64,000 nucleotides of DNA from Spirochaetia bacterium (GCA_965198005.1 CBDAOI010000003.1:1156109-1220108); one strand, 5' to 3'. Shown: positions 38,891 through 58,135, counted from the stretch's first letter. Notes: a model not told the origin generated them from the letters alone. Translations and numbers: made by a program.

Positions 38891-38934
38891 CGTGGCACAG
38901 AGCCGCATCGTTTGGGAGGAGATTCCGGGCCCCG

Positions 38935-39283: not shown

Positions 39284-39468
39284 GACCACTCCAGGCGCAA
39301 CCCCGCTCGAATGGTGCGTCATGGTGGCGGCCACGCCGCTTCGAACGTATCGCTCACGGAGATCGAGAGGCCGGGAAGGCTCGGCGAATCGGCATGGGGC
39401 GCCCGGCAGCGCGCCGCGTACGACCGCCTGCGGCCGAATCGGCGCGCCTGCTCCGGCAGCTCGGGCGG

Positions 39469-40870: not shown

Positions 40871-43800
40871 CTATGGCCCTCTTCGCACTGCCGATCTTTG
40901 TGCACTCTGCCGTATGTCTAACGTTAAAAAAACCACCCTAACTTCGCCCCACTCTCCCCCGTAGTAAGCAATAAACCCAGGAGGCCTCGAATCTTCGTGA
41001 GCGATATCTCTGCGCCTACGATACGCGAACCTATTGGGCGCTTCGTCCCTCGCAATCTCCTCCATTATCTGGAGTATTTGATTCGGTCTGTCAACATAAG
41101 AGTACACGACGAGAAAAAACAGGTCGCACGAACAGTAGGCCATCAGTCGAGCAAAATGCCGTTGTATACTTGTACGATCAGCCGCTCCAGAGCGACATAT
41201 AACGGCCTCCAACACTGTTACTGTTGTCGCACCCAATCTCAGCACGATATCTCGCTCACCAGGATTCCCTCGTTCCGTATAGCCACCCCTCATTTGGTCT
41301 CCTACTGACCATCCCAGCAACTCAAGTCGGTGTGTCAAAAGCTCCTTGAGAAACGCATTGAGATCATCTTCACGTGAATCGATTCCTACAGTTCGCATCA
41401 TCGGAACTAGTTCGGTGATACTCGCGGCTGCCGCCCGTACATGGGAAATCACATGCTCGTCAGCCGAACCAGACGGGTGCAATACCTTGGCTTGTTCAAC
41501 ATTATCCATCTGCTTGAGATCAAGTAATGAGTTTTTGACCCTACTTATTGCATCGTCACTAGGCAAGGCGATCACTACACCGGCGTAGGGCGTAGAGCGT
41601 ACCAGGTCGCGTGCCGCACGCAACACATCGGTCTCTCCTACCTGTAGTGTTGCTTGTTCGAGAACCGCCTGAGCTTCGGAGGATCGGTTCAACCTAGCAA
41701 GCGCTACAGCCGAGTTTGCCGCTGCCACATCGCGGAGGGTTGTCGGGTTTATCGATGCAAGAAAATCAAGGGCCGGTTGCGGTTGACCCACCGAAATTAG
41801 CAATTGGGCTTTGTTGCAAGTGTATATTTCCGATTCATCGATGCTGATGGCCCCGTACTGATGCAGCTTGCGCTGTGTATCTGACAGTAGTTGATGGCCG
41901 CGGAGTTTCTGGCTACCTTTTAGTCGCTTGAACGGGTCATGCTCTAGAAGAATACTAAGGCGAGTAGCGAACAGATTGACGAAGTAGGCAAACACGTCCG
42001 GCCTTTCACGGTGAAGGAGGGAAAATACTCGTTCTGCTGCCGCACGGTCTCCGCTTGGGTCGTTGAGGAGAGCAAGTCCCTTGTAGAAACTTATCGCCTC
42101 ATCGGCGGACTGTTGTTCGGCTGGAGCAAGATCCTTCGGTATCTCAGTATTCGCGATCTCGTCCCATTCTTCCCGGAGCAAGTGTAATCGTAGTGTTGTC
42201 CGGAGCCGTGCCACGACTCGTCCCGGGATGGGACCGATCGTACGAAGCTCTCTTTCGAGTTCGATGAATCGTTCGGCTGCATCCGCAAGACCAGCAGACA
42301 GGAGCGTTTCAATGCGTGCCTGAGCATGGGTGAGGGAGAAGACTTCTCCCGCCTCACTTGGCGTTAGCTCCTCAATCCGACGTATAGTCTGATCTCGCGT
42401 ATTGTGGGGAGCGAACTGTAGGAGCTGCGCAAGCAGCATAGGCTCGTCGGTCTCCAACACCGCGGCCAGGACCCGATCCCTGTCGTTCGCCGAGAGCGCG
42501 TCAATCGCCGACCCGATATCGGCAGCGATTGGGCGACCGGAATGGCCGTCGGAACCGTACTCTTCATAATGGGGAGAAAAGGCTGTGATTCTGCCTTTTT
42601 CGTGATGCGCAAGCGCCCCGGTCCGTATCGCGGTCACCAGTGCGCTTGTGATCTCCTCGGGCACAGATCCTGAAAAGGCCGAGATCGCCCCACTCAACGT
42701 ACGAATGTGCGTGCGTATCGACCCCCCGAGGTCGAATACAATCGAATATCGGTCTTCCTCCGAGCATTCCTCCAACGCACTAACTGTATCAATAGGATAA
42801 AGGAAACGCGAAAATGACGTGGGCGGTGCACGCGATGCGATTCTCGCGAGCGTCGCTGCTGCAGTAGTGCTCAATCTAACCGACCGGCGCACAGGACTGG
42901 TTGATCCAACGAGACTACTGTAGGCATCGACGAATGGCATCGGATCTACTTCATCTGAGAGATCTCCACAGTCGACAATGTCTACAGCAGCGCTAAACTT
43001 TGCTGTCTCAAGTTCGGAATAGGAAGAAGCAAACAGCGCGTCAACCATCGCTCGCAGCACCTCTCTTGACTGTTGAGAGAGTTCATTCCGCAGAGTAGTA
43101 AGCAGCGATTCACCAGTCTCCATGTGGTCAGGCACGCTGTAGGGGACGTTCTCGTGAAACCACTCCATCAGTGAAGCTGCCTCTTTAGGATTCGTATCAC
43201 CCCGTGCCAAGAAATGACCCAACACGGATACCGCATCAGCGAATGCCATCGATTTTGTGGTCTTGTTATCACGGTCGATTAGATCACGATCCCACGCTCC
43301 GGAATATTGCGTTCGTTTTGCAATAAGCAGGCACGCTACTGCCGTCGTAGCGGGATGGAGCAGCAAGTCCGCCAGAAGTAGCGTCTTGCCGCGAAGCTGA
43401 AGTACGAGAATGAAGAAAATATCTGCGCTCTCTATTGCTAACTCGATCAGGCGCTTCGCTACTGGATCCGGAGCAGGACCATCGTTGTCGGTCTCTACAA
43501 CTGAAAGAATCAGCGATACCAGCCATGCTATATCTCCGTGTTCTCTCATTCTATTGACACCAGTAACGTCAAAGACCCAAGCAACGCGATCCACCAGGCT
43601 TTCAGGGACGGTAGGAATCCGTGATGCGATGGTGTCCACAGTCTCGTTGTTTACGAGAGCATACTTCTTGATGAGTTCGTTTCGCGCCTCCTCCCATCCG
43701 CAGATTCCCCGGTCTGACTCAAGAACGGTGAAGGCGGCTTCCCGGAACGTTGCCACCGCGTCCTCATCCCACACCACATGAGGCACGAACGAGGGATGCC

Positions 43801-44428
43801 CCAGTTTTTTCCACCGATCAAACCAGACGCGGAGCGCAGTAGCCTGACTATCGGAGTCTGTCGGTATTCGATCCCACAGCCGGGCAGCAACCCAATCAGG
43901 AGACTGGCACCCAACTCGTTCCGGCCTGAGCTCGTTGTTTCTAATCTTCGTAGTGACGTCATCTAGTTCCGGGTGTCTACCTGGTTTGATGGTCACCCGA
44001 TAGGTCTCTTCGAAGCGGCTTTTCAAGAGGGAGCAGAGCGCACTCATCGCTGGAGTGGCTGCCTCGGCTGCTCGAACGAGATCAAATGATGCGGAGATTC
44101 GGCCCCAGACTACGGTCAGCCATCCGGCGTCAATCAACTCCTCTAGACTCGGTTCGTTCGATGTCGCGGAGAGATTCGAGCTATACGTGGCGCGTGCGCT
44201 ATCGAGATCGCTCGCGAAATCGATGCTGAGGTTGAGCAGAAGCCGGAGCATCAATTCGTCGGATAGAGTGACATCGTGATGAACACGACGACCGGCTTGG
44301 GAGCTGCTATCCGACGTAAGGTATCGCGCCAGTCTATCGCGCAGAATGCCGCGAGTCGCGGCAGGAGAGTGCTCTATGCTCGAGAAACGCGCCAGCACCC
44401 TACCCCAGAGTGTGGCCGACAGCGTCAT
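40871..44428 (-). CDS. Large hypothetical protein with helical/TPR-like body and C-terminal restriction-endonuclease-like domain
   Basis: About 1185-aa open frame in lower-GC DNA; REDD...DQMRGG...GERDIVL...VLEA motif. Confidence 0.7.
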   Translation of the reverse strand: MTLSATLWGRVLARFSSIEHSPAATRGILRDRLARYLTSDSSSQAGRRVHHDVTLSDELMLRLLLNLSIDFASDLDSARATYSSNLSATSNEPSLEELIDAGWLTVVWGRISASFDLVRAAEAATPAMSALCSLLKSRFEETYRVTIKPGRHPELDDVTTKIRNNELRPERVGCQSPDWVAARLWDRIPTDSDSQATALRVWFDRWKKLGHPSFVPHVVWDEDAVATFREAAFTVLESDRGICGWEEARNELIKKYALVNNETVDTIASRIPTVPESLVDRVAWVFDVTGVNRMREHGDIAWLVSLILSVVETDNDGPAPDPVAKRLIELAIESADIFFILVLQLRGKTLLLADLLLHPATTAVACLLIAKRTQYSGAWDRDLIDRDNKTTKSMAFADAVSVLGHFLARGDTNPKEAASLMEWFHENVPYSVPDHMETGESLLTTLRNELSQQSREVLRAMVDALFASSYSELETAKFSAAVDIVDCGDLSDEVDPMPFVDAYSSLVGSTSPVRRSVRLSTTAAATLARIASRAPPTSFSRFLYPIDTVSALEECSEEDRYSIVFDLGGSIRTHIRTLSGAISAFSGSVPEEITSALVTAIRTGALAHHEKGRITAFSPHYEEYGSDGHSGRPIAADIGSAIDALSANDRDRVLAAVLETDEPMLLAQLLQFAPHNTRDQTIRRIEELTPSEAGEVFSLTHAQARIETLLSAGLADAAERFIELERELRTIGPIPGRVVARLRTTLRLHLLREEWDEIANTEIPKDLAPAEQQSADEAISFYKGLALLNDPSGDRAAAERVFSLLHRERPDVFAYFVNLFATRLSILLEHDPFKRLKGSQKLRGHQLLSDTQRKLHQYGAISIDESEIYTCNKAQLLISVGQPQPALDFLASINPTTLRDVAAANSAVALARLNRSSEAQAVLEQATLQVGETDVLRAARDLVRSTPYAGVVIALPSDDAISRVKNSLLDLKQMDNVEQAKVLHPSGSADEHVISHVRAAAASITELVPMMRTVGIDSREDDLNAFLKELLTHRLELLGWSVGDQMRGGYTERGNPGERDIVLRLGATTVTVLEAVICRSGAADRTSIQRHFARLMAYCSCDLFFLVVYSYVDRPNQILQIMEEIARDEAPNRFAYRRRRDIAHEDSRPPGFIAYYGGEWGEVRVVFLTLDIRQSAQRSAVRRGP

Positions 44429-44696
44429 GTCGCCAAACAAACGCGGTTACGAGCCACCGCGCCTTTGCTCGTCCTCTGCCTCTTTCGGAACCACTGCGTG
44501 AGCCGTCGGCTGCGTAAGGGAGGGGTAGAGGGTTCACACGGCGCAACCCTTCCCCCGCGACCGTCTTCCTCACAACAGGCCTGGAATTCCACACCGACAG
44601 TTCACCGTACCACCCGGGGGCGCGTACCGGGGAGTCGCAGCAGTCGCGGATCTGCGCACAACGATCATGGGATCGACTTCGCATGGTTGCGCCAGC

Positions 44697-47600
44697 TCAG
44701 AGTGCGGACGTGTCAAGCAGCACGTCAACCAACTCTGCCACGACGGTCAACTCGCCATCATCCGCGCCGGAGATGACGATGGGATCGAACTCAGGATTGA
44801 CCGGTTTCAGGGTGATCTTGGCATGGCGCCAGGAGCCTCCGTCCGCGACTCGCTCGCTCTGGTATCGCTTGAGAGTGTATCGCGCACCGGTCTCAGGATC
44901 GACCGCGCCGCGAAGCTGCACCAGCACGGTCTTGCCCTGCCTGCTTCCCTCCACCGGCGAGCGGAACAGGGCATACGCACCATCGGGAACGGAGGGCTCC
45001 ATCGACCGGCCCGTGACTTGGGCGACGAACATACCCGGTCGCAGCCGCCGTGCGGTGTCCACCTCCACCCACTCCCATTCTCCTTCGGCCTCCACGGTCT
45101 GGGGATCGCCGAATGCGCTGGCTGCCACCTCCAGCGGAACGAGAGGAACGCAGGTCACGTAGCGTTCATCGGGAAGCCCGGCGACGATGCGCAAGCCGCC
45201 GTGCACCGGTTCCGCGGGTACTTCGCCAGTATCCCGGAGCCGCCGGTACGCCTGCGACGACAGCCACTCGCTCACCACGTCCCTGAACTCGTCGTCGTTC
45301 ATGTAGCGAACGTAGATGTCTTCGTTCTGATCCAACCGCTCCACGAACAGGCGCTCGATCAGGCTGCGGAACACCAGATCGAACTTGCCCTCGGGATTGA
45401 CCGCGGCGGTCTGGCGCAGCTCGTCGTCGGCGACCGCAGCCTCGACGATCTGGTCGAAGAAGAGCTGGTCGGCCTCGTTGAAGTCGGTGCCGAACCGCTG
45501 GTTGACGACGTCGATGAGCTGCGACAGCGGGACCGACTCCTCGTGCGCGGCGCCGCTGCCGACCTCGGTAGGTCCATCGAGAGGGTGCCCGTCACCGGTG
45601 CCCAAGACAATCGAGCCTTCGCCGATCTTCTGCAGCCGGTAGTACTCGAGACTCACGTTGTCGTCGAATTGGTACGCCGGCCCCGAGCGGCGGCGCGGGA
45701 GCTTGGCGGCGAGGTGGCGCAGGTAGACGTAGAGCCGCTCAAGGTCGGAGTCCTGATAGGGGATCACCTGGCTCAGAAATCGGTAAAGGTTGCGGAACGC
45801 GTAGACCTTGCCGCGCCAAAGCTCGGCCTCCGTCTCGTTCTCCTTCAAGAGCGCTGCAAAGCGCGACACCGCCGGATCCAACGCGGCGTTCATCGCCCGG
45901 TGATCCGCCGGGCTCTGGCGCTGCCTGGGCTTGAAGTACACCGCACAGAAGCGTTCGACCTCCTCGGCGAGGTACCCGCCGGATGCGTCGAGTTCGGCCT
46001 TGATTGCGTACATGCGCGCCGGATCGACTTCCGCACCCATCTCGGCGCCCTCGTAGTAGGTGGCGAACGCTTCCTGAATCTCGTCGCGGTGGTTCACGAA
46101 GTCGAGCACGAAGGTGTCTTCCTTGTGCGCGTGGGTGCGATTGAGCCGGGACAGAGTCTGCACCGCCTGGATACCGGCGAGGCGTTTGTCGACGTACATG
46201 GTGTGCAGCAGGGGCTGATCGAAGCCCGTCTGGTACTTCTCGGCCACCAGCAGCACCTGATATTCCGGCGTCGCGAAGTGCTCCGGCAACTCCTTCTCGC
46301 GGATGCCGGCGTTCATCTGCTCCTCTGTGTAGGACACGCCTGCCACCCGGTCGTCGCGGACCTCACCCGAGAAGGCGACCAGCGACTTGATCGGATAGCC
46401 CTTGCTCGTGATGTAGCGGTCGAAGCTCTGCTTGTAACGTACCGCCTCAAGACGCGATCCGGTCACCACCATCGCCTTGGCGCGGCCCCGGATCCGGTGG
46501 CGGGTGACCGTGTTGAAGTGCTCGACAATGACCTCGGTCTTCTGCGCGATGTTGTGCGGGTGCAGCCGTACGAATCGGGCAAGTGCCTTGGCTGCGTTCT
46601 TCCGCTCCACGTGGGGATCGTCCACACACTCCTTGAGCAGCCGGTAGTAGGTGGCGTAGGTCGTGTAGTGCTTGAGGACGTCCAGGATGAACCCCTCCTC
46701 GATCGCCTGCCGCATGGTGTAGCGATGCGCGGGCCTGCCGTCCCATCCGAAGACTTTCAGCGTCTTGTGCTTCGGCGTCGCCGTGAAGGCCAAGAAGCTC
46801 AGGTTGGCCTGCCGGCCGCGCTTGGCCATGCTGAGGAACAGTTCCTGCACGTGCTCACCTTCGAGGCCCTCCTCGGCGGCGCGTTGCCGAGCTTGCGCAC
46901 GTAGCGCTTCGCCTCCCAGGACCTCCTTGAGCGCGGTCGCGGTTTCACCGCCCTGGGAGCTGTGCGCTTCGTCGATGATCACAGCGCAACGGCGGGTCGG
47001 CAGCACGCCCGTCGCCTCCGTGCCTCCTTCTTCGGCCATCGCGAGAAGCTGGCGCGAGACGAAGGGGAACTTCTGCAGCGTGGTGATGATGATCGGGACC
47101 GCCATCGCCAGCGCTTCGGCGAGCTGTCGCGAGTTCTCGTCGATCTTCTGCACTACGCCGCGCTTGTGGTCGAACTGGTAGATGGTGTCCTGGAGTTGCT
47201 GGTCGAGCACGACGCGATCGGTCACCACGATCACGCTGTCGAACACGCGGGCGTTGTGCGTGTCGTGCAGCGAAGCCAGGCGATGAGTGAGCCATGCGAT
47301 GGTGTTGCTCTTGCCGCTCCCCGCCGAGTGTTCGACCAGGGCGTTGTGTCCGACCCCTTCGCGACGCGCGGAATCCACCAGGAGGCGCACCGCTTCGAGT
47401 TGGTGATAGCGGGGAACGACCATCGTCTCGACCTTCGCCCGGCGTCCCCGGTCGTCCCGTTTCTCTTCCACTTGCAGATGTACGAAGCGCGCCAGGAGGT
47501 CGAGCAGGCTGTCCCGGTGCAGCACCTCCTCCCACAGATACGAGGTGCGGTAGCTGCGCCCACTCAGATCGGGCGGGTTGCCGGCGCCGCCGTCGCAGCC

Positions 47601-48245
47601 GCGGTCGAAGGGAAGAAAGTGGGTGGCGTCGCCGGCGAGGCGCGTGGTCATCAGCACCGACTCGGTGTCCACCGCAAAGTGCACGAGGGTGCGCCGCTTG
47701 AAGCTGAAGATCGGCACGCGCGGATCACGATCCTCCCGGTACTGCTGGCGTGCGTCCTCGACGCTCTGTCCCGTCAGAGGATTCTTCAACTCCAGGGTGA
47801 CGACCGGGATCCCGTTGACGCTCAGCGTCACGTCGAGCGACTGCTCCGTACGTGGCGAAAAATGAAGCTGGCGGGTCAGCCCGAGGCGGTTGGCCGCGTA
47901 GCGTGCGTCCAGCTCCGGATTCAACTCGTGCGCCGCCTTGAAGAACGCGGCATGCAAGGTCCTGCCGTAGCACTTGAACCCATGCCGGAGCGTCGCCAAG
48001 GCGCCGTGGGTATCCATCCAACCGCACAGATCGCGCAAGATCTGCGCACCGGTCTGCTCCCCTAGTAAGGCTTCAAGTCGGGCCCATTCCTTGGACTGTG
48101 TTTCGCGGATGAAACCGAGCGTGATCTCGGGGAAGATCGCACGTTCCCGGTCGAAGCCGTCGTTCGGCACCGGCACGTACCCGTGCGCCAGCAGGTGCGC
48201 CTCGATCACCGTTTCGAACGCCGCTTCCCCGGTTCGTTCCGTCAC
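44697..48245 (-). CDS. hsdR: Type I restriction endonuclease subunit R with C-terminal S24/LexA-like domain
   Basis: D....NGIP....[36 protein letters not shown] at 48245 overlaps the ptuB stop. Confidence 0.95.
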
Positions 48246-48886
48246 CGTCGTCCCCCTGTGGGCCGCGCGAGTTTTCTGTTCAGCCACCAGATGCCCACAT
48301 GTACGTAGGGATCGAGGCGCCGGGGCGTGTTGCGGCGCGCAATTTCGCGCTCAACGCGCTGCCTCGGTACCGGTCTCCGCTGGCGCCGCCACCAATGGAG
48401 GACCGCATCCAGGATCGCCTTGCGATGATTCCTGATCCGCGGCAGGTTCAGGTTGAGCACGCCGTTGAGTTGCTGGTGGAACACCGGATCGTCGGACCGC
48501 ATCGTACCGTCATTTGCGTAGCTGATTCGATCCTCTATGCGGCGCAGCGGGTCCGCTGGATTCCACCGCAAGTCTCGATCCCCCTTCCGCGTGTCACAAT
48601 ATTGCAAGCGAAAAGGCTGGCCCTCACCGCCGCGACAGGCGGCAAGCAGATTCTGATAGTCGAGTTCCTCGCCCGGATAAGCGACCCTGCTTCGCCAGTG
48701 CTCGATCTTCATGGCGTTGGCCTCGCTCGCGATTCGGCACATGCAATAACAACACAGCCCGCGCTGTTCTGCCACCAGTGCCTCCCGCAGAGCGTCTTTG
48801 TCCTCATAGTTGTCGTAGGCACCGTGCGGCGTACTGCGATGGGTCGTGAGGCTTGCCGGTTCCGGACCCTTCACGATCGACCTCAT
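48242..48886 (-). CDS. ptuB: PtuB-like HNH endonuclease (TIGR02646-like)
   Basis: [30 protein letters not shown]. Confidence 0.85.
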
Positions 48887-50103
48887 TCGCCCTCTTCCAG
48901 GAACTCCAGGAGCGTACGAATCCGCGTCACCTCCGGATCATCGCTTCCGACCTTCTCGATCAACTGAGTCAACGACCGCCGGGCGCGCCCAAACGCATCG
49001 CGATCGATCTCACCGTTGATACGGGCAAGGAGTTCCAGTACTTCCCTGGTGCGCGGATCGGCCTCCATGATCTCCTCCAGCACGCGGCTGGAGTCGACGC
49101 CGAAGGAGTGTGTCGGCGAGAACGCCCCGTCCTCGGTAAGGATCTGGATGCGGTCGTGCTCGACTTCGCCGATCACCTGCGGCGAGTGCGTGGTAGCGAT
49201 GAACTGACAGCGGGGAAACGTCTCCGTGAGCTTGCGTGCGATCTGGCGCTGCCACTTCGGGTGCAGCAGGAGATCGATCTCGTCCATCAACACCACGGCG
49301 CCCGCCTCAGCGGCCGGATCGGTCAGTCCGGGGTTCGCCTCGCCCAGCCGTCGGGTGAGATCCAGCACCACGGCCAGTATGCTCCGCTCGCCGTGCGACA
49401 GGTGGAGCACCGGCAGCGACGCCCCGTGGCGGTCGATAAGCAGCGTCCGATCATCGGATCCGCCAAGATGCAGGTGGCCGTAACCAGGAAGGAAGCGTCG
49501 TGCCGCACGTTCCACGCCGATCAAGGCCGCGGCGTTGAAGGTCTGCCTCACTCTCATCCAGTTCGCGAAGTAGCCCAACGGAACCTCCCGATCCGAAAGG
49601 GCGCCTTCGTATGCCCGCGAGACCCCGCCCATGGGCTTCGGCGGCCACCGTTCTGTCACCGCTAATCGCACTGCCCGAGTCGGCGAGTACATAACCGCCA
49701 AGGGCCGCCCTTGTGACTCCACTGCTTCGATTTCGGGGCGAGTGCTTGGGGCGACGGGAGGCTGCGCGCCGATAAACCCTTTCCTCCCCGGTCGCATTTC
49801 GCTCTGACTACGAATCTGGTGCACCACAAAGTGGTACGACGATCGTGCGGCATCGAGACTGCACCCGACGTCCAGGGATTCCGCCTCCACGCGAATATCG
49901 TCATCGCTGAACGGCTTTGGCGCCCCCACGTTGGACCTGTTATATACCCGTTCGAACTCGAACAGGCAGATCGCCAACGCGTCGATAAGCGTCGTCTTGC
50001 CGACGCCGTTCTCGCCCACTACCACGTTGAAACCAGGCTGGAAGCGCAACTCGGCCGTCATGATGGAGCGGACATTCGTCAACTTGATACTGGTGACTTT
50101 CAT
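48883..50103 (-). CDS. ptuA: PtuA-like ABC-type ATPase
   Basis: GENGVGKT, LSHGERS, VVLMDEIDLLLHPKWQ, FIATTHSP, SS.VLEEIM. Confidence 0.85.
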   Translation of the reverse strand: MKVTSIKLTNVRSIMTAELRFQPGFNVVVGENGVGKTTLIDALAICLFEFERVYNRSNVGAPKPFSDDDIRVEAESLDVGCSLDAARSSYHFVVHQIRSQSEMRPGRKGFIGAQPPVAPSTRPEIEAVESQGRPLAVMYSPTRAVRLAVTERWPPKPMGGVSRAYEGALSDREVPLGYFANWMRVRQTFNAAALIGVERAARRFLPGYGHLHLGGSDDRTLLIDRHGASLPVLHLSHGERSILAVVLDLTRRLGEANPGLTDPAAEAGAVVLMDEIDLLLHPKWQRQIARKLTETFPRCQFIATTHSPQVIGEVEHDRIQILTEDGAFSPTHSFGVDSSRVLEEIMEADPRTREVLELLARINGEIDRDAFGRARRSLTQLIEKVGSDDPEVTRIRTLLEFLEEGE

Positions 50104-51416
50104 GACACCTGATCCACTTCGATCTGCCCGGTTACCGCACCCGCGATCAGGGCCGATCGGCGCTCCACTATGAGCGCGTGCGCGAGTGTAACAGACTCCT
50201 TTAGAGTGTCAATTCCATCTCCCTCTCTCTGCAAATATCTCACGATTTCTTGCTGCTCGCCAACCGGCGGAACCGGAAGGTTCACTGCGAAGAACCCATC
50301 GGGATATAGGCGTAAGCGTGAAGACCATACACCCATGGAATAACGCGTAACCTCCTGTGCGAAGACGCGCAAGCGAACCAGCGCATCAATGTACGTCGGA
50401 TCCAGCTCTTTCGTCGGCGCATATACGTTGTACGCTGGGCTAACGATGCCATCTACAAACGCGACTCCCATTGCGCCCATCCAAGCCCAGAGTGTATTGA
50501 TCACCAAATCGCCACGGAGACATATCTTGTACCCTTCCGTAGTCTCGGCCTCGAACATGTTGACTTCCTTCTCAGAGCGAGGTGTCACGCCAGTCAGGTG
50601 GGATACCGTTAGAAGCTCCTCGCACCCCGTTGCTGATCGTTGATCCCTCTCACGAAACAGCCAACGAGCTCGCTCCGTATCCCAGTGCTCCGGGATCTCG
50701 CCCAGCCATCCTATGCCGGAATCGCGGAACGAAGCGTCGGGATTCAGCCCGCGTGTGACAGCACGAGTGATCAGCGCTTGGCGCTTCTCCTTTAGCAGGC
50801 TCAGCAACCGTTTCTTCTCCGCTAACAGTGCATCCAGCCGTTCCGTCTCCCGGTCCAGGTAGGTAGCTATGGCGCGTTGCTTGGTCCTATCGGGTAACGG
50901 AACGGACACATTGCCGATAGAGTCCCACTCAGCGCGTGGCATCTTCGATCCAAAGGTCGAAGCATTTACCGTGTCGACAAACTCACTCCAAAGGCAGATG
51001 TACATAAGGAATCGAGGTTCTACCTCCACCGGCCTCATAACCAAGAACTCGGTAGAAGACTGTCCGGAAAAATCAGCGACCCATGCTTTTGCGAGATATG
51101 GGCGCAGCTTTCCGAATAGTACATCTCCGGGCTCGAAAACATTACTGAGCGAGGCGGGGTAGACTACAGTGGTCGCGGTGCCATCATCAGCCGCTGTCGC
51201 GTTGAGAAGCCTTCCCGTCCGTGACTCAATGTTCTCCAAACCGATATACGGCCTGTCATCGTTACCTCCATCAATGCGTAACTGTCGAAGCGACACGACG
51301 TGCTTTAGGCGCTTACCTTCGAATGGTAGTCTCAGCAGTCTCAGCTTGTTATTCTCGTCATGATGGCTCATCTGTCGCCTCAGAGAAAGCCGACCGATTT
51401 GCTCTTTTGTTTCCAA
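50100..51416 (-). CDS. hsdS: Type I R-M specificity subunit S
   Basis: Two TRDs with conserved P....Q..I..YLD and RQALITRAVT.G repeats; start may be near 51371. Confidence 0.92.
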   Translation of the reverse strand: METKEQIGRLSLRRQMSHHDENNKLRLLRLPFEGKRLKHVVSLRQLRIDGGNDDRPYIGLENIESRTGRLLNATAADDGTATTVVYPASLSNVFEPGDVLFGKLRPYLAKAWVADFSGQSSTEFLVMRPVEVEPRFLMYICLWSEFVDTVNASTFGSKMPRAEWDSIGNVSVPLPDRTKQRAIATYLDRETERLDALLAEKKRLLSLLKEKRQALITRAVTRGLNPDASFRDSGIGWLGEIPEHWDTERARWLFRERDQRSATGCEELLTVSHLTGVTPRSEKEVNMFEAETTEGYKICLRGDLVINTLWAWMGAMGVAFVDGIVSPAYNVYAPTKELDPTYIDALVRLRVFAQEVTRYSMGVWSSRLRLYPDGFFAVNLPVPPVGEQQEIVRYLQREGDGIDTLKESVTLAHALIVERRSALIAGAVTGQIEVDQVS

Positions 51417-51452
51417 GACCCGGCCAGACCGCCTTACACGGAAGCGGAAGAT

Positions 51453-53465
51453 TCAAGCGGTCACCTCCCGCAACAACTGAATGATCCTCTCTTCCGCCTG
51501 CTTCAGATCCGCGTCGATTTCTTCCAGCGGGCGCGGGGGCGTGTACTGGTAGAAGTGGCGGTTGAAGTTGATCTCGTACCCGACCTTGTCCCTGGTGCGG
51601 TCCATCCAGGCGTCGGGTACGTGCGGGAGCACCTCGCGCTCGAAGTAGGCGTCGATGTCCTCGGCGAGCGGGACGTTCTCAGAATCGCGCAGTGCAGGGT
51701 CGGGCTCGAGGCCGTCACCGCGGTCGTTCCTGACCGGCGCGGCCTGCGGAGTCTTCGCGGTGAATGCCTCGCGGAACAGCTTGTACTGGGGCTTCTTCCA
51801 ACGTGACCGGCGATCGCGCAGGAGGGCGCCGATCCGCTGCGATACGATGTTCCAATCGTCCAGGGGACCCCTGCCCAGCGCCCGGTCGATGGCCTGTACG
51901 TCGTCGAGCAACTCGGGGCACGCGTACAAGAACCGCTCCATCGCGTCGAACGTCATCTGATAGCGCAGGCGCAGGGGACGCTCCACGGTGACCCGCGTAT
52001 ACCCGAAGTCGATGTTGAGGAAGCTCTTGCAGCGCTCGTCGTCCTCGAATCGACCGTACAGCCGTACGGTCTCGTCGATTTGATCGTCCGACAGGTGGCG
52101 GCGCTTGTCGCCGAGGCTGCGCCGGCTCTCCGCGCTGCCGCCCGGCGTCCACAGATCGCGTGCATCGACGAGTTGAATCCTGGCGTGGCGCCGCTTCTCC
52201 TTGCGATTGGTCACGATCCACACGTAAGTGCCGATGCCGGTGTTGTAGAACATCTGTTCGGGTAGCGCGATGATTGCTTCGAGCCAGTCGTTCTCGATGA
52301 TCCAGCGGCGGATGTTGCTCTCACCCGAGCCGGCGCCGCCCGTGAACAGTGGCGAGCCGCTGAAGACTATGGCGAGCCGCGAGCCGTGGCGATGCTCGGC
52401 CGGGCGCACGGGCTCGAACTTGGTCACCATGTGCAGCAGGAACAGGAGCGCGCCGTCGTTGACGCGCGGCAGCCCGGCGCCGAAGCGACCGGCGAAGCCC
52501 CGCTTCTCGTGCTCGCGCCTGATCTCGCTCTGCTGCCGTTTCCAGTCGACGCCGAACGGAGGGTTGGTCAGGAAGTAGTCGTAGGTTTCGCTCTCGAAGC
52601 GGTCCTCGGTGAGGCTGTCGCCGAAGCGTACGTTGTCGTCGCCGCCGCTACTGTGGCTCACCTCCTTCATCAGCATGTCGGAGGCGGCGGTGGCGTAGGC
52701 GCGCTTGTTGTAGTCCTGCCCGTAGACGTAGAGCTTGGCGTCGGGATGATGCTCGCGCAGGTAGCTCTGCGCCTCGGCCAGCATGCCGCCGGTGCCGCAG
52801 GCCGGATCGAGCAGCTTGCGCACGGTGCCGCGGGTGGCGAGCAGATCGTCGTCGTTGATGAACAGCACGCTCACCATGAGCCGGATCACGTCGCGCGGCG
52901 TGAAGTGGTCGCCGGCAGTCTCGTTGGCCAGTTCATTGAAACGACGGATCAGGTTCTCGAAGATGAGACCCATCTGGTCGTTGGGCACTTGCCTCGGGTG
53001 GAGGTCTACCCTGCGGAACTGCGAAACCACCATGTAGAGGATGTTCGCCTCGCGCATCTTCTCGATCTCGGCTTCGAACTCGAAGTATTCGAAGATGCGG
53101 CGCACCTCGGAGGAGAACCCCTGGATGTAGCTCACCAGATGCTGCGCGGTGTTGTCGGGATCGCCGAGCAGCCTCTCGAAATCGAGATCAGAGTGGTTGT
53201 GGAAGCGCTGGCCCGCAGCCTGATTCAGCATGGCGTCTAGCGCTGCGCCCTGGTATCGGCCCTTGCGCTTCCGATATTCCGCGAGGACTCTGGCCTTGGT
53301 GGGCGCCAGCACGCAGTCAAAGCGGCGCAGCACCGTCATCGGGAGCATGACGCGCTCGTACTGTGGCGGCCGGTAGGGGCCGCGCAGCAGATCGGCGATC
53401 TGCCAAATCAGGTTGGCAAAATAACTATGGTCGGGCATCGGTACAGCCGCACGGAACCTGGACAT
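51453..53465 (-). CDS. hsdM: Type I R-M N6-adenine methyltransferase subunit M
   Basis: IWQIADLLRG, G.HFTPR, DPACGTGGML, NPPF, FYNTGI.TY. Confidence 0.96.
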   Translation of the reverse strand: MSRFRAAVPMPDHSYFANLIWQIADLLRGPYRPPQYERVMLPMTVLRRFDCVLAPTKARVLAEYRKRKGRYQGAALDAMLNQAAGQRFHNHSDLDFERLLGDPDNTAQHLVSYIQGFSSEVRRIFEYFEFEAEIEKMREANILYMVVSQFRRVDLHPRQVPNDQMGLIFENLIRRFNELANETAGDHFTPRDVIRLMVSVLFINDDDLLATRGTVRKLLDPACGTGGMLAEAQSYLREHHPDAKLYVYGQDYNKRAYATAASDMLMKEVSHSSGGDDNVRFGDSLTEDRFESETYDYFLTNPPFGVDWKRQQSEIRREHEKRGFAGRFGAGLPRVNDGALLFLLHMVTKFEPVRPAEHRHGSRLAIVFSGSPLFTGGAGSGESNIRRWIIENDWLEAIIALPEQMFYNTGIGTYVWIVTNRKEKRRHARIQLVDARDLWTPGGSAESRRSLGDKRRHLSDDQIDETVRLYGRFEDDERCKSFLNIDFGYTRVTVERPLRLRYQMTFDAMERFLYACPELLDDVQAIDRALGRGPLDDWNIVSQRIGALLRDRRSRWKKPQYKLFREAFTAKTPQAAPVRNDRGDGLEPDPALRDSENVPLAEDIDAYFEREVLPHVPDAWMDRTRDKVGYEINFNRHFYQYTPPRPLEEIDADLKQAEERIIQLLREVTA

Positions 53466-53515
53466 GCGAGGAATCGGTCACGGTGACGTCGACGCGAGCG
53501 TCTTCGTGAAGCAGG

Positions 53516-53809
53516 TTATCCATCGAGCGGCGTAGATGGAGCGTCAGTCTCTGGGTTCGCTTGGAAGCGTTCGACGAAGCTTCGGGCGGCGGGAATCCAG
53601 GCATCCGGCATCCGGTCGCCGGAATCCGACCATTCGATGTCGTGGAGCACGCCGGACAGATCGCGCATGATCTCCGCGAGTTGGGTGCGTAGCGGGTGCT
53701 TCATATGCTCGTCGATCTCGTCTGGTTCGCCATATTGGCACCCGGCTTCCAGATCGTCGGCGACCTGCTCAAGCTTGGCATAGAAGTAGTCCATCGATCC
53801 GCCACTCAT
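53516..53809 (-). CDS. Small hypothetical protein resembling phage hypotheticals
   Basis: 97 aa, MSGGSMDYFY...LHDIEWSDSGD; preceded by TTGACA. Confidence 0.65.
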   Translation of the reverse strand: MSGGSMDYFYAKLEQVADDLEAGCQYGEPDEIDEHMKHPLRTQLAEIMRDLSGVLHDIEWSDSGDRMPDAWIPAARSFVERFQANPETDAPSTPLDG

Positions 53810-53813
53810 GACC

Positions 53814-53847
53814 TGCAATGGTTTGCATGTGGTATGCAGTGTGTCAA
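53814..53847 (-). promoter_or_regulatory. Putative sigma70 promoter overlapped by a TGCA operator-like array
   Basis: TTGACA at 53847-53842 on the minus strand; TGCA at 53814, 53824 and 53835 forming overlapping palindromes. Confidence 0.5.
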
Positions 53848-54019
53848 GCGTAATGGGAGATTCTGGAGATTCTGCGGGACGTGTCCGAGAGCGAGGGGGA
53901 GCGGCGCTTGGAGATCGACATCCTGGCGGTCGACGGGGAACGCGTGAAGCGAGACGGCGTGGCCGGCTATAATGGGGACTCCGACGAATCAATGATACGG
54001 GACGAGACGGAGGATTAGG

Positions 54020-54815
54020 GTGGAGCTCAGTCCCCACCGCGACGTTGCCCGGCGCATGGCCGGCGCCTGCTGCGATCTGCTGGAGAGTCTGGATGCGGCG
54101 CAGCGCGGGCGCGCTACGTATCCCTATCTGGATGGGGAGCGGCGGTTCTGGTATTACCCGCCGCTGAACCGCCACGGCTTGCCGCTGGGCGGCATGAGCG
54201 CCGAGCAGCAGGCGCTGGCGAAGCGCATCCTGGAGGTTTCGCTGTCGGACAAGGGGTACGAACAGGCGTGCGCGATCATCGAGCACGAGCTGATCCTGGG
54301 CGAGCGGGAACGGGCGGAGGGGCACGCGCACTGGGTCCGCGATCCCGGCGGTGACGAGCCGTGGGGCTGGCGTGCGGAAGGACACCATCTGTCGCTGCAC
54401 TTCAGCGTCTGGGGCCGGCGCGTAGTAACGCCGTTCTTCTTCGGCGCCAATCCGGCGGAGGTTCTGCACGGTCCGCGCCGCGGCTTGCGCATTCTGGCGC
54501 GGCGCGAGGATCTGGCGTTGGAGCTGATGGAAAGTCTCAGCGGAGACCTACGTCCACCAGGTGCACGGCGACATTGCGCGTGCCAAGCTGGCGGAGTTGC
54601 GCGCGGGCGGCATCGGCCATCTGCACTTCGCCTGGGCCGGGCCGGTGGCGCGCCGCGAGGGCCACTACTACCGCATCCACGGCGGCAATTTCCTGGTCGA
54701 GTTCGACAACTGCCAGAACGAGGCCAATCACGTGCACTCGGTCTGGCGCGACCTGGAGAACGACTTCGCCGAGGACGTGCTGCGCCGCCACCTGCTGGCC
54801 TACCACGTGCTGTAG
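54020..54815 (+). pseudogene. DUF3500-family gene, internally deleted and frameshifted
   Basis: WGWR.EGHHLSL and TPFFFGANP in one frame; FAWAG, HYYRIHG, EFDN, NHVHSVWRD..NDF in another; shift near 54543. Confidence 0.82.
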
Positions 54816-54823
54816 TAGGCGGC

Positions 54824-55630
54824 CTACGCGCGCCGGCGCCGTAACGGATCCTGGCGGTAGAACGCCTTGAGCTGGCCGTAGACGCCGGCGAACTGGGCGT
54901 GCAGCGCGTCCGGCTGCTCGAAGAACAGCTCGCTGGTAACGGCGAAGAACTCGGCCGGGCTTTCTGCGGCGTAGGAATCCACCGGCCCACCGCCGTCCTG
55001 GTGCAGCCGCTCGTAGGCCGCGCTGAACTCCCGGTGCCAGCCGGCAGGGTCCATGTCGCGGTGCAGCGGGGGCCGCCCGTTCATGCCGCGGTCGATCAGA
55101 TCGAGCTTGTGCGCCGCTTCGTGAATCACCACGTTGAAGCCGTCGCCCCAGCCCGACGCCTCCACGTCAGCCCACGACAGCACGATCGGCCCCTCCTCCC
55201 AGGCTTCGCCGACGACCTCCTCCTCCCACTCGCGTACCACGCCGCCGTCGTCGGTCTCCTCGAAGCTGGACGAGAATTCCTCGGGCAGCAGCACGATGGT
55301 GCGCCAGTTGCGGTACCACTCAAGCCCGAGGCCGAGGATCGGCAGGCACGCCTGGGCGGCCACCACCAGCCGATACGGGGTCTCGGCATCGTCCTCGCCG
55401 CCGTCAGGCGCGCTCACTCCGCGCAACTCGAACCGTTTGCGGCGCAGAAATCCGCTTACCAGTTCGCGCAGCCGGGTGTCCTCCTGCGCCGTGAGGCCGC
55501 GCAGTATTGGGTGGTTGTCCAGGATCCACTGCCACTGCTCGGCAGGCACCGAACTGCCGCTCCGGTTGCGCCGCGCGCGCAGCCAAGCCGTCGCCCGAAG
55601 ACCGCCGTCCCGGCGTCGCTTTTGTCCCAT
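54824..55630 (-). CDS. MtfA/M90-family zinc peptidase
   Basis: AAQACLP.L, GEAW..GPIVLSW, NVVIHEAAHKLD, YAA..PAEFFAV.SE.FF. Confidence 0.9.
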   Translation of the reverse strand: MGQKRRRDGGLRATAWLRARRNRSGSSVPAEQWQWILDNHPILRGLTAQEDTRLRELVSGFLRRKRFELRGVSAPDGGEDDAETPYRLVVAAQACLPILGLGLEWYRNWRTIVLLPEEFSSSFEETDDGGVVREWEEEVVGEAWEEGPIVLSWADVEASGWGDGFNVVIHEAAHKLDLIDRGMNGRPPLHRDMDPAGWHREFSAAYERLHQDGGGPVDSYAAESPAEFFAVTSELFFEQPDALHAQFAGVYGQLKAFYRQDPLRRRRA

Positions 55631-55723
55631 CCCTTCTATTCGTCAGCAGTCGGTCCGACCGCCCCCTGCCGTCCAACGGGGGTCCATGGATCGTCCCCAC
55701 GGCCCGCGGCGTGGTTGGCGGGC

Positions 55724-55786
55724 GCGCGCCAGCACGAACAGCAGATCGGCGGCGCGGTTCAGGTAGGCCGGCACCGGTGCCCGCAC
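55724..55786 (-). pseudogene. Possible remnant of a PduO-type cob(I)alamin adenosyltransferase
   Basis: VPAYLNRAADLLFVLAR resembles the family C-terminal YLNRLSDLLFVLAR. Confidence 0.5.
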
Positions 55787-55829
55787 GGGCGTAGCACGGG
55801 TGCCACCGCATCGGCGATCCGACAGGTTT

Positions 55830-57095
55830 CTAACGCTGTAGCGCGTACACGCGATAGCCGTCCTCGCGAATCCGCTGCAGGTAGAATGAGTCGCGCGGCA
55901 CGCCGTACTGCCAGTCGGGCCCGAGTTGGTCATAGCCGTCGCCTGCAACCCAGCGGTCGTAGACGTCCGCCCGCGCCTCGTGGGCGTGATTGAGGGCGGA
56001 GTCCATGTCCCAGCGCTCGATCACCTCCGGCGCGCGCTGCGCCACCTGGCCGCTCAGCACCACGGCGGTGTTGCCCGACCCATAGGACAGCAGCAGCAGC
56101 CGTTGGCCCACGATACCGTCGCCGTAGCGCCGATACCGCCGGTCGAGCAGCGACGCGAGGGCGAGAAACAGCGAGCCGGAGTAGAGGTTGCCGACGATCG
56201 CGGCCGGCTGAATCGAGGCGTCGAAGTCGCGCTGCTCCAGGTAGCGCTCCACTGCCGCCGGCTCCAGGTCGAGATACCTGGTAACCAGTGAGCTCAGCAT
56301 CTCCAGCGGAAGCTGGCGAAAGGGAGCGTGAAACGCGAACAGCTCGGTCTGTTTCAACACCTCGGCCGGCGTGCAGTCCGTGCGCCGGCAGTGGTCCAGA
56401 AACGCTTCCTCGATGGTCTCCTTGTAGCAGTTCACCGAGAACGCCCCGCGCACCCGCGGCGTGGCGGCGCCGACCGGGCGAAAGAAGTCGTCCACGTCGC
56501 GCGAGGCGTAGCCGGCGGTGGCGAGGTCGAGCTCGGCCAACCCGCAGCTGCGTTCCGCGATCATCGCCACGGCGCCGGCGCCCTGGGTGATCTCGGCGCT
56601 GGTGCCGGCGTCGTAGCGGGCGACGTCGGTGCAGATCACCAGACCGCGTTCCTCGACCCGGGAGCCGAGGGCGAGCAGAGCGTTGACTCCCATCAGCGAG
56701 TAGGTGCCGCCGGCGCAGGCGTGCTGCGTCTGGAAGGTGGCGATGGTCCGGGGAATCGGAAACCCGGCGGCGCGCAGCATGCCGGCCACGTGGGCGGCGA
56801 TCGGCTTGGCCATGTCGGTGGCCGATTCGGTGCCCACCGCGACGTAGCGCAGGCTGGCGATGGCGCTGTCGTTCATCCGCGACAGCAGTTGCATCGCAGA
56901 TTGCGCGGCCATGGTTACGGCGTCCTCCCAGAGGTTGGGAAACCGTACCGAAATCTGGCCCGTGCGTTCGATGGCGCGGCCCAGGATGCGTTTGATGGTA
57001 GGATTGGAGAGGGCGTACCGCTCCAGCAACCGGCTCAGGCGCATCAGAAGCTTCGGGATATACACGGCCATGTCACCGATCCCTGTGGTTATCAA
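55830..57095 (-). CDS. mvaS: Hydroxymethylglutaryl-CoA synthase
   Basis: EDAVTMAA, GTES..D.AKP, HACAGG (catalytic Cys), E.TQGAGAVA, DFFRP, FHAPF, GNLYSGS, SYGSG. Confidence 0.9.
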   Translation of the reverse strand: MITTGIGDMAVYIPKLLMRLSRLLERYALSNPTIKRILGRAIERTGQISVRFPNLWEDAVTMAAQSAMQLLSRMNDSAIASLRYVAVGTESATDMAKPIAAHVAGMLRAAGFPIPRTIATFQTQHACAGGTYSLMGVNALLALGSRVEERGLVICTDVARYDAGTSAEITQGAGAVAMIAERSCGLAELDLATAGYASRDVDDFFRPVGAATPRVRGAFSVNCYKETIEEAFLDHCRRTDCTPAEVLKQTELFAFHAPFRQLPLEMLSSLVTRYLDLEPAAVERYLEQRDFDASIQPAAIVGNLYSGSLFLALASLLDRRYRRYGDGIVGQRLLLLSYGSGNTAVVLSGQVAQRAPEVIERWDMDSALNHAHEARADVYDRWVAGDGYDQLGPDWQYGVPRDSFYLQRIREDGYRVYALQR

Positions 57096-57159
57096 CTCTC
57101 CGCCTCCTGCTCATAGGGTAGCACTCGACGGCTTCCGGATTCAAGCGAACTTGTTGCCT

Positions 57160-57191
57160 TGCCTAAACCATTGCCTAAACCTGCCTAAACC
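57160..57191. repeat. Triple direct repeat TGCCTAAACC including the stop of the Rieske gene
   Basis: Copies at 57160, 57172 and 57182. Confidence 0.85.
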
Positions 57192-58135
57192 TGACCGGTG
57201 CGCAGCGCATACCGGCGCTCGGCGTAGGCCGCGTCCTCGACCCACAGGCGCCGGGCCGCGGCCTGCATGCGCCGTCGTATCAGCCCCGCCGCCCGCATGG
57301 CCAACCGGAAGCCGAGCCGGTCCGAGGTGGCCAGCGTCGCCTCGACGATCGCGCACTCGCCCGGCCGCACCGGCGTGGCATGGGTCTCCACCACCGACCC
57401 GGCACCTTCGCCGTCGATGATGGTCATGACGATGGTACGCGGATCGGGGCAGTGGAACCGGGCATCGACCTCCACTCCCAGGCGGCGCGTGGCCCGGTAC
57501 GTCACCCGCACCACGATGCTGTCCGGCTTCTGGTCAAGCACCCGCAGGCTGCCGAACGAGTGGGGATGGAAGTGGACGCCGTGCCACGGATCGAGCCGGT
57601 TGGCCAGCACGTCCTCGGGCTCGCACCGGGCCTCCATCCGGATGACCGCGTCGACGTAGCTGGCGGGGCGCTCGCACCGGTAGGGTGCGGGGGTGCCGGG
57701 CTCGGTACCGCGCTCGGTCCGGTCCAGCCGGACCCAGAGCAACACGCCGTCGTCGTGGCTTGGCAGCGGGCGCCAGCCGCCATGGCCCTCCCGGCCGAGC
57801 ACCAGTCCGTGCCACGGGCAGACGATGCAGCCGGCGCGCACCTGACCGTCGGCCAGCGGTGCTCCGAGGTGGGGACACGCGTTGGGCGCGACCAGCAGAC
57901 CGTCCGACCCGCGCCACGCCACCAGCTCGCGATCACGGATCCGATACTGGCGCGGCCGGTCGCCGATGGCCCGGGTCGCGTCGATCACGTGCCAGCCGCC
58001 GCCGGGAAGCTGTTGCGCACTCCGCAGCGCCTGCCGGATCCACTCGGGATCCGACTGCTGCCAGTCCGGCGTACCCGCCGCGCGGGCGGCTCCCGGCCGT
58101 GGTGCGGGCCGCCGGCCGAAGCGAACACCCTTCAT
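57185..58135 (-). CDS. Rieske/DUF5914 protein of actinobacterial-type crt clusters (CrtV-like)
   Basis: CPHLGAPL, CPWHG, ANRLDPWHG..FHP, GEG.GSVVETHATP, LW.ED.AYAERR. Confidence 0.8.
   Translation of the reverse strand: MKGVRFGRRPAPRPGAARAAGTPDWQQSDPEWIRQALRSAQQLPGGGWHVIDATRAIGDRPRQYRIRDRELVAWRGSDGLLVAPNACPHLGAPLADGQVRAGCIVCPWHGLVLGREGHGGWRPLPSHDDGVLLWVRLDRTERGTEPGTPAPYRCERPASYVDAVIRMEARCEPEDVLANRLDPWHGVHFHPHSFGSLRVLDQKPDSIVVRVTYRATRRLGVEVDARFHCPDPRTIVMTIIDGEGAGSVVETHATPVRPGECAIVEATLATSDRLGFRLAMRAAGLIRRRMQAAARRLWVEDAAYAERRYALRTGQV

Follow-up and report, generated by a model that had tools for sequence, protein, structure and literature searches.

Introduction

Type I restriction-modification (R-M) systems, as well as BREX and DISARM, often hold embedded genes, many of which are known defence systems (Payne et al., 10.1101/2024.01.29.577857). 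The present work concerns one such locus from a Spirochaetia bacterium (GCA_965198005.1), in which the genes for a Septu pair, ptuA and ptuB, lie within the hsd genes of a type I R-M system. The stretch of DNA that was analysed, which is referred to here as the window, is 64,000 nucleotides (nt) in length (CBDAOI010000003.1:1156109-1220108), and positions are counted from its first letter.

According to Payne et al., Septu is commonly embedded in Hma, where only 0.7% of Septu are found, PrrC occurs almost only within type I R-M, and embedded systems with ATP-binding cassette (ABC) ATPases may be back-up defences that anti-defence proteins set off. For PrrC, masking by the R-M system and activation by Stp have been shown (as cited in Payne et al.), and in PARIS an ABC ATPase holds the nuclease and Ocr is the trigger (as cited in PMC12065111 and Payne et al.). 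In enteropathogenic Escherichia coli, DarTG2 is located between hsdS and hsdR, a site which has been described as a potential recombination hotspot (PMC12255303). A stand-alone Septu of E. coli is reported to cleave tRNA-Tyr upon infection (PMC13096335), tRNA-Tyr is also degraded by Retron-Eco7 (PMC12673091), and a PtuA6-PtuB2 architecture and its control by ATP have been described (PMC12065111). Other work on Septu reports synergy with tmn, not with R-M (Wu et al., 10.1101/2022.08.21.504612), or is confined, in the portion available, to a comparison of retron and stand-alone PtuA (PMC12819146). Both the embedding of defence genes and the back-up idea are already published, and the locus described here belongs to this class of nested defence systems. 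No text naming Septu in a type I R-M system was found in the literature, although it may be listed in the supplementary material or figures accompanying Payne et al., which lay outside this search.

Gene Content and Organization of the Septu-Containing hsd Operon

The locus consists of five head-to-tail open reading frames (ORFs) on the minus strand, extending from 53465 to 44697, in the order hsdM-hsdS-ptuA-ptuB-hsdR. An original prediction, made from the sequence alone, had given the same order, with a Septu-type pair in the position that PrrC occupies between hsdS and hsdR. Both the order and the position are borne out by the succession of the ORFs and by Pfam and PADLOC, which assign all five of them. 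The genes and their overlaps are as follows.

51453-53465, minus strand: hsdM, N6-adenine DNA methyltransferase, 670 amino acids (aa); Pfam HsdM_N 7.6e-24 and N6_Mtase 4e-50; PADLOC MTase_I PDLC03029 1.2e-255
50100-51371, minus strand: hsdS, specificity subunit, 423 aa from ATG 51371 (438 aa from TTG 51416); PADLOC Specificity_I PDLC03105 9.7e-80 over 35-435
50100-50103, minus strand: hsdS/ptuA stop/start overlap, ATGA by direct sequence reading
48883-50103, minus strand: ptuA, Septu ATPase of the ABC/SMC (structural maintenance of chromosomes) type, 406 aa; PADLOC PtuA PDLC00271 5.5e-98, span 1-403 of 406
48883-48886, minus strand: ptuA/ptuB stop/start overlap, ATGA by direct sequence reading
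48242-48886, minus strand: ptuB, Septu HNH nuclease, 214 aa; PADLOC PtuB PDLC00322 4.3e-69; NCBIfam TIGR02646 2.5e-14, above cut-off
48242-48245, minus strand: ptuB/hsdR stop/start overlap, GTGA by direct reading, which presupposes that hsdR starts at GTG 48245
44697-48245, minus strand: hsdR, restriction/translocase subunit, 1182 aa from GTG 48245; Pfam HSDR_N, SWI2_SNF2, ResIII and T1R_D3-like; PADLOC REase_I 4.6e-39

The catalytic motifs are intact in all five proteins. HsdM, HsdS and HsdR together make up a complete type I R-M system: HsdM carries the NPPF motif of type I methyltransferases (aa 301-304), and in HsdR both the nuclease (PD-(D/E)xK-type D138...E152-L-K154, QxxxY) and the superfamily 2 (SF2) translocase (GSGKS, DEAH) were located. 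PtuA contains a Walker A motif (GENGVGKT, aa 30-37), the ABC signature (LSHGERS, 235-241), a Walker B motif (VVLMDEID, 270-277) and an H-loop (TTHSP, 304-308), all of which are included in the 34 columns that are invariant in a 44-row alignment of PtuA. Its NCBIfam PtuA match (7.1e-60) lies under the cut-off for that equivalog. PtuB, which directly follows PtuA, contains CCYC (aa 45-48), a catalytic-type His within KIEHWRS (aa 60-66) and NLLAAC (79-84).

These features, together with the lack of a reverse transcriptase or retron RNA, are those of a type I Septu. The pair shares with the described type I systems (8EE4/8EE7/8EEA; E. coli Ec-B88) the combination of ABC ATPase and HNH nuclease, the 4-bp overlap of the two genes, near full-length matches to the PtuA and PtuB families of PADLOC, and sequence hits to the solved chains (PtuA to 8ee4, 3.4e-33; PtuB to 8ee7_C, 3.9e-5). 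It differs from them in that PtuA is shorter (406 aa, vs 465 aa for 8ee4 and 542-552 aa for the retron forms), with only the C-terminal half aligning well, and in that the pair is nested in an hsd operon without a promoter region of its own. The effector pair of the type I-A retrons (Ec78/Eco7, Ec83), also termed Septu type II, is homologous, and the best match of PtuA in the PDB is in fact the Ec83 ATPase (9e8z, 3.9e-34), PtuB also matching 9e8z_E (2.7e-5). However, the window PtuA lacks the extra length of the retron forms, and neither a reverse transcriptase nor msr/msd is present at the locus. The statement of the original prediction that the window holds no reverse transcriptase was confirmed, as none of the 32 RVT_1 matches in this 4.89-Mb genome lies inside it, the nearest on the contig being at ~978 kb. 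Retron RNA was likewise not detected by Rfam at E<=1 over 38000-58000, where a single small RNA match was at chance level.

It had also been proposed that 4-bp stop/start overlaps at three junctions reflect translational coupling. The overlaps were read directly, and a -4 overlap is also present at 40 of 54 related hsdS/ptuA junctions, 54 of 63 ptuA/ptuB junctions and 19 of 30 ptuB/hsdR junctions. Because the same overlap recurs at related loci it is not due to chance, and the proposal of coupling holds for this operon, with the proviso that at the ptuB/hsdR junction it depends upon GTG 48245 being the start of hsdR. There is some ambiguity about this start, which the ORF lister places at GTG 48287; a Shine-Dalgarno-like AGGGGGA is situated 8 nt before GTG 48245. 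The start of hsdS (TTG 51416 according to the ORF lister, ATG 51371 or ATG 51361) is likewise uncertain, and hsdM and hsdS do not overlap here. The five genes form a single operon, in which a complete type I Septu is situated at the hsdS/hsdR junction of a complete type I R-M system.

Phylogenetic Analyses and Conservation of the Embedding

Related loci were collected by a PtuA-anchored scan of one genome per prokaryotic species, which found 95 relatives and from which 80 loci were used, and by an HsdM-anchored scan, from which the best 80 of at least 572 stretches were used as a sample, not a census. Neighbouring genes were identified by comparing six-frame ORFs of the PtuA-anchored loci with the window's own proteins (phmmer, E<1e-5). 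Hsd neighbours were found in 45 of the 80 PtuA-anchored loci and not in 22, for each of which at least 3.5 kb upstream and at least 5 kb downstream was examined; the remaining 13 contigs were too short. Among the 40 best-ranked loci, PtuA is embedded among Hsd genes in 39, the exception (L015) being a contig of 1.7 kb that is too short to judge.

A tree of PtuA was constructed from 95 rows by a quick IQ-TREE run (LG+G4), after four contigs found in both scans were dropped. In this tree the window PtuA is part of a clade of 52 rows, which is supported by the SH-like approximate likelihood ratio test (SH-aLRT 96) and in which 51 rows are embedded and one is the 1.7-kb contig noted above. Although 11 of these 52 rows were obtained by the HsdM-anchored scan, the design of which makes them embedded, the PtuA-anchored rows of the clade are also embedded in 39 of 40 cases. 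The record titles within this clade carry the labels of 15 phyla, including that of a Methanothrix archaeon. The nearest PtuAB pairs that are not embedded are cyanobacterial and show ~31% identity. An hsd-embedded clade, for which the original prediction had suggested looking in a PtuA phylogeny, is therefore present, and the closest PtuAB homologues do not occur in random contexts. The hsdM-hsdS-ptuA-ptuB-hsdR layout is real and widely conserved. Additionally, since three smaller embedded groups (L051/L137/L128, L049/L057/L115, and L067, the last with a different R-M family) fall outside the main clade, Septu has become embedded in type I R-M more than once.

The locus thus resembles the embedded systems described earlier in that the module shares its strand with the hsdS and hsdR genes between which it is nested, and a back-up rationale for such systems has been proposed (Payne et al.; PMC12255303). 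It differs in that Payne et al. name Septu in Hma, whereas here a whole clade of PtuA is confined to the type I slot. It is also like PrrC (EcoprrI, hsdMSR) in some respects: position at the hsdS-hsdR junction, an RNA/DNA nuclease regulated by an ABC ATPase, and almost exclusive embedding. By analogy a tRNA target is also plausible for PtuAB, and the analogy has gained weight from the cleavage of tRNA-Tyr by stand-alone E. coli Septu (PMC13096335). However, PrrC is a single polypeptide that combines an ABC ATPase N-domain with its own anticodon-nuclease C-domain, and it lacks homology to the HNH protein PtuB; the system seen here consists of two proteins, and its effector is of the HNH type. 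When the ATPase was compared with PADLOC, the 25 best families were PtuA, the retron I-A ATPase and AriA, and PrrC was not among them. Masking by an R-M system is established for PrrC and would be hypothetical for PtuAB.

These likenesses invite the explanation, advanced in the original prediction, that the R-M complex is a guard. PtuAB would be held latent on the Hsd complex, most likely on its HsdM2S core, and an anti-restriction factor would unmask it, leading to the cutting of tRNA or DNA. The PrrC slot, the near-exclusive embedding, the conserved translational coupling, the tRNA nuclease activity that Septu has in common with PrrC (PMC13096335) and the nearly constant association of PrrC with type I R-M (Payne et al.) are all in its favour. 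The homology to PrrC is limited to the ABC ATPase class, and the contents of related operons, which are described next, make a guard of this kind unlikely.

The hsdS/hsdR Junction as a Site for Cargo Genes

In the best 80 HsdM-anchored loci, the slot between hsdS and hsdR holds PtuAB in 22 and other cargo in 26, hsdS abuts or overlaps hsdR in 16, and 16 could not be assigned. The ORFs in these gaps other than PtuAB number 116 and fall into 63 clusters, of which ten representatives were scanned. By PADLOC, they include IetA/IetS (3e-147 / E=0), the HEC-01A ABC ATPase (1.4e-152), RhuM/PDC-S05 (1.8e-158) and SoFic (1.1e-64), and further representatives are a DUF6575 protein and two divergent PtuB subtypes. 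In some loci PtuAB and a second cassette occur together.

A tree of HsdM (108 rows, FastTree) shows two clades. The first comprises 31 rows that are ~50% identical to the window HsdM, and within it PtuAB is found in none, no cargo in 14 and other cargo in nine, with eight unassigned. All 53 PtuAB rows are part of the second clade (77 rows), where they are mixed with 16 rows with other cargo and two with no cargo. To account for the distribution of PtuAB upon this tree, at least 12-17 changes are required. In this Hsd subfamily, the hsdS/hsdR junction is therefore a cargo hotspot, as has been described for other embedded systems with alternative cargos (Payne et al.; PMC12255303), and PtuAB is its commonest defence cassette.

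The PtuA clade is also accompanied by at least three PtuB subtypes of PADLOC, namely PDLC00322 (as in the window), PDLC00315 (L033, 9229-9921) and PDLC00346 (L037, 9269-10021). As these subtypes accompany the same PtuA clade, PtuB has been swapped independently of PtuA.

Another recurrent occupant of the slot is a protein of ~380-400 aa with a helix-turn-helix (HTH) and an M78 domain (ImmA/IrrE-like, with a weak PADLOC match to RmrA), followed by a DUF4411 protein of ~165-175 aa. The HTH-M78 cassette was found in 14 loci (L004, L008, L013, L029, L089, L096, L098, L103, L107, L111, L117, L122, L126, and L147), where it lies between hsdS or ptuB and hsdR, at times alongside PtuAB. The DUF4411 protein follows in 10 of the 14, and longer ORFs are present in L089 and L111. 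This pair looks like a toxin-antitoxin-type candidate for defence.

When the C-termini of HsdS were compared with those of 100+ relatives, no extra C-terminal docking or winged-helix domain was found, and HsdS ends in a conserved helix (...ERRxALIxAAVTGQIxV) plus 0-10 residues, which is alike in loci with PtuAB, with other cargo and with no cargo. The lack of a docking extension is a point against a guard. A complex prediction for HsdS (26-row alignment) with PtuA (44-row alignment) gave a score of 0.00, which in a run without controls counts neither way on binding.

Divergence of PtuA and Loci without hsdR

The distances among the proteins were compared in 41 loci with full-length PtuA, HsdM and HsdR. 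The mean identity is 44% for PtuA, 72% for HsdM and 76% for HsdR, and the distances are correlated between PtuA and HsdM (r=0.60), PtuA and HsdR (r=0.58), and HsdM and HsdR (r=0.87); for the two pairs involving PtuA, none of 2000 permutations gave a value as high. This co-variation of PtuA with Hsd accords with a guard. However, in four pairs of loci the HsdM proteins are 91-96% identical and the PtuA proteins only 42-52% (e.g., L047/L049, with 96% for HsdM and 50% for PtuA). Since near-identical HsdM is paired here with such divergent PtuA, the PtuAB variant has evidently been replaced inside the same operon, and PtuA is exchanged and fast-evolving relative to HsdM and HsdR. Because near-identical Hsd operons hold either unrelated cargos or divergent PtuA, a conserved interface between Hsd and PtuAB is unlikely.

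The same observations bear upon another possibility, in which PtuA itself would act as the sensor. As with PARIS, PtuA would detect a phage anti-restriction protein or some other cue and free PtuB, with the R-M system serving as bait and no contact between the two. PtuA belongs to the ABC-ATPase class of AriA (PADLOC 3e-24; PDB 5e-6), fast divergence and swaps of variants in a constant Hsd background would suit a phage-facing sensor, and a benefit of this type has been proposed for embedded ABC-ATPase systems (Payne et al.). On the other hand, the resemblance to AriA is at the level of the class, the PARIS effector is a Toprim protein of a separate family and not an HNH nuclease, no member of the clade has a known trigger, and in the portion of the report available to us E. 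coli Septu is not said to need an anti-restriction protein (PMC13096335). We regard this explanation as improbable, to about the same degree as a guard.

The closest relatives of the window operon (L001-L003, with PtuA 76-64% and HsdM up to 90% identical) differ from it in lacking hsdR. In these loci, and also in L011 and L105, hsdM-hsdS-ptuA-ptuB is followed by housekeeping genes, and the best HsdR homologue in these genomes is either at least 70 kb distant or just 41-56% identical. Among the 45 embedded PtuA-anchored loci, hsdR is present in 41 and absent from four, each with 5 kb or more of sequence available downstream. The ptuAB genes appear intact in L003, L011 and L105, while the frames of ptuA and/or ptuB look broken in L001 and L002. 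The comparative data thus indicate that HsdR is dispensable for the retention of PtuAB, and because L003, L011 and L105 keep intact-looking ptuAB without an adjacent hsdR, HsdR is not the required guard.

In light of the varied cargos, the swapped PtuA, the loci without HsdR and the absence of an extra domain on HsdS, the proposal that the R-M complex restrains PtuAB was not supported. These four comparative results argue against a dedicated Hsd-PtuAB interface, without refuting a guard formed by HsdM/HsdS.

Loci without hsdR (the four-gene forms L001-L003 and L011 of this clade, plus L105) could also be taken to indicate that PtuAB is a second nuclease arm, which HsdM2S would recruit at unmodified sites beside or in place of HsdR. 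This is a considerably weaker candidate than a guard or a sensor: HsdS lacks the docking or winged-helix domain, hsdR is kept in most embedded loci, quite different toxins (Fic, RhuM, IetAS) share the slot in sister operons, and L001 and L002 are the very loci in which the Septu frames look broken. The broken frames of these relatives, together with the selfish linkage benefit that embedding may confer (Payne et al.), could instead point to a hitch-hiking or decaying passenger that is currently functionless. Of all the explanations considered this appears the least probable, as the ATPase and HNH motifs are all intact in the window, the invariant columns of PtuA have been maintained, and the module is conserved over all of the labelled phyla noted above.

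A LexA-Like Module at the C-Terminus of HsdR

The HsdR protein of the window ends in an additional module.

44697-45128, minus strand: LexA-like S24 module, HsdR aa ~1040-1182; Pfam Peptidase_S24 1.1e-7, 32 bits vs a cut-off of 23.3

The residues characteristic of S24 peptidases are Ser1081 in GRSMEP and Lys1126 in TLKRY, with a cleavage-site-like strand VAASAFG. In an alignment of 37 such sequences, the strand PL..AAG.F, the serine motif G.SMEP and the lysine motif KRY are conserved at >=90%, and the window HsdR has AAS at the cleavage site vs AAG in the family consensus (Ala-Ser vs Ala-Gly). The last 192 residues were modelled by AlphaFold2 with a predicted local distance difference test (pLDDT) score of 80.8 and a predicted template modelling (pTM) score of 0.77, and a Foldseek search with this model gave 32 PDB matches at E<=1e-3 (best 3jsp_B, 1.8e-5), led by the C-terminal domains of LexA, lambda CI and UmuD. 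The fold was recognised after modelling; a phmmer search of this C-terminus against PDB sequences gave just a chance-level match to RNA polymerase alpha (E ~0.007).

The module is present in 26 of 49 PtuAB operons, eight of 22 operons with other cargo and none of 15 with no cargo (four duplicated contigs included), and it is not specific for PtuAB. No publication on an HsdR-S24 fusion was found in the literature search. The same module (53% identity) is also found at the C-terminus of two large helicase proteins from related genomes:

L169 219-3284, minus strand: helicase with C-terminal S24, 1021 aa, Helicase_C and MZB
L170 258-6197, minus strand: helicase with C-terminal S24, 1979 aa, DEAD, Helicase_C and MZB

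The module could be a self-cleaving switch on defence motors that responds to RecA filaments and hence to DNA damage.

Genomic Setting, Flanking Genes, and Indications of Expression

The region from ~40.9 to 54.5 kb has a GC content of 0.51-0.65 vs 0.68-0.74 in the flanks, and it forms a low-GC island amid housekeeping genes, those next upstream being for an M90 peptidase, an HMG-CoA synthase-like protein and a Rieske protein. Homologues of PtuA at >=53% identity are present in only six of 23 other genomes from the same family. No tRNA genes were found within the window. Many of the RVT_1 matches noted above lie in near-identical open frames of ~538 aa, which are spread across all four contigs and resemble a multi-copy element of the group II intron type.

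Two further ORFs flank the operon. One of 1189 aa (40871-44440, minus strand) follows hsdR at a distance of 257 bp and has the lowest GC content of the island (0.51-0.56). It had no Pfam, PADLOC or NCBIfam match and no homologue among 160 related loci; the Atlas clusters closest to it consist of unnamed proteins with lengths of 1060-1245 aa (0.94-0.96), and leads to Mrr_cat/NucS_C are weak (<0.8). It may be an uncharacterised defence gene. The other, of 317 aa (53516-54469, minus strand), lies directly upstream of hsdM, and a contig from an RNA library matches 53591-53752 exactly; it had no family match in the library scans and no homologue among the 160 loci. As neither has a homologue in any of these loci, both are outside the conserved unit.

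A scan of 40500-54800 gave two promoter-like sites vs 3.4 expected and ten terminator-like sites vs 9.9 expected, which is not above chance. One promoter-like site (50212-50185, minus strand; TTGACA-16 nt-TG-TACACT, 10 of 12 matches) lies within the 3' end of hsdS, ~80 nt before ptuA. Since the number of sites does not exceed the shuffled expectation, this putative internal promoter for ptuAB-hsdR is only a lead. RNA contigs identical to the operon were found in two metatranscriptomic runs of one study. Two of them (48764-48975 and 48787-49001) span the ptuA/ptuB junction, and others lie in ptuA (49431-49690 and 49657-49867) and in hsdS (50352-50539). These contigs are a weak hint that the genes of the operon are expressed, as carry-over of DNA is possible and a contig is no proof of a single transcript; stretches of the operon without a contig are uninformative.

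Discussion

The explanation that we favour, with moderate confidence, is that PtuAB is an autonomous type I Septu occupying the cassette slot of a type I R-M operon, where coupled expression and joint transfer make it a second layer of defence. It builds upon what was observed of the identities of the genes, the integrity of their motifs, the conservation of the layout, the structure of the clade and the variability of the cargos, beyond which we infer the autonomy of the pair, its trigger, its target and the mechanism by which cassettes are exchanged. By analogy with the solved Septu complexes, an oligomer of PtuA would restrain the HNH nuclease PtuB, and a cue from infection would free PtuB to cut nucleic acid, which is tRNA-Tyr in those E. 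coli systems that have been studied. No physical restraint of PtuAB by Hsd would be necessary. Embedding would instead supply fixed co-expression by translational coupling, co-regulation and joint horizontal transfer, and PtuAB, being expressed together with the R-M system, would act against phages that escape restriction. The conserved 3' end of hsdS and 5' end of hsdR probably provide the homology arms for the exchange of cassettes.

Several observations weigh against this explanation. An autonomous module would be expected in other contexts as well, as is the wider Septu family, but the main PtuA clade is, apart from one short contig, found only in embedded form. Such exclusive embedding resembles that of PrrC, and it could reflect a dependence upon Hsd or merely upon the promoter of the operon. 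The correlation of PtuA and Hsd distances (r ~0.6) means that long co-inheritance is real. The absence of an Hsd neighbour is, moreover, defined by phmmer searches with the window Hsd proteins at E<1e-5, from which very distant R-M genes may escape. Lastly, the suggested trigger and target are borrowed from E. coli relatives that are ~30-35% identical over the C-terminal half only.

The exclusive embedding and the co-divergence with Hsd are the only hints that the clade is obligately tied to R-M, as a latent tRNA/DNA nuclease that HsdM2S would silence until a phage inactivated or overwhelmed the restriction enzyme. The variety of cargos, the replacement of PtuAB variants and the loci without hsdR weigh against such an obligate tie, and we consider it improbable. 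If true, it would represent a second guarded back-up of the PrrC type, and one that is phylogenetically far wider, extending to 15 labelled phyla including an archaeon.

To the published picture of embedding, the comparative data add a clade of PtuA restricted to a single slot in a single Hsd subfamily, the exchange of whole cassettes at this slot, PtuAB variants included, while HsdM and HsdR remain nearly constant, and the retention of PtuAB where HsdR is missing. The locus is a natural case of layered immunity, in which first-line restriction and an abortive-type nuclease are combined in one coupled operon that moves between phyla.

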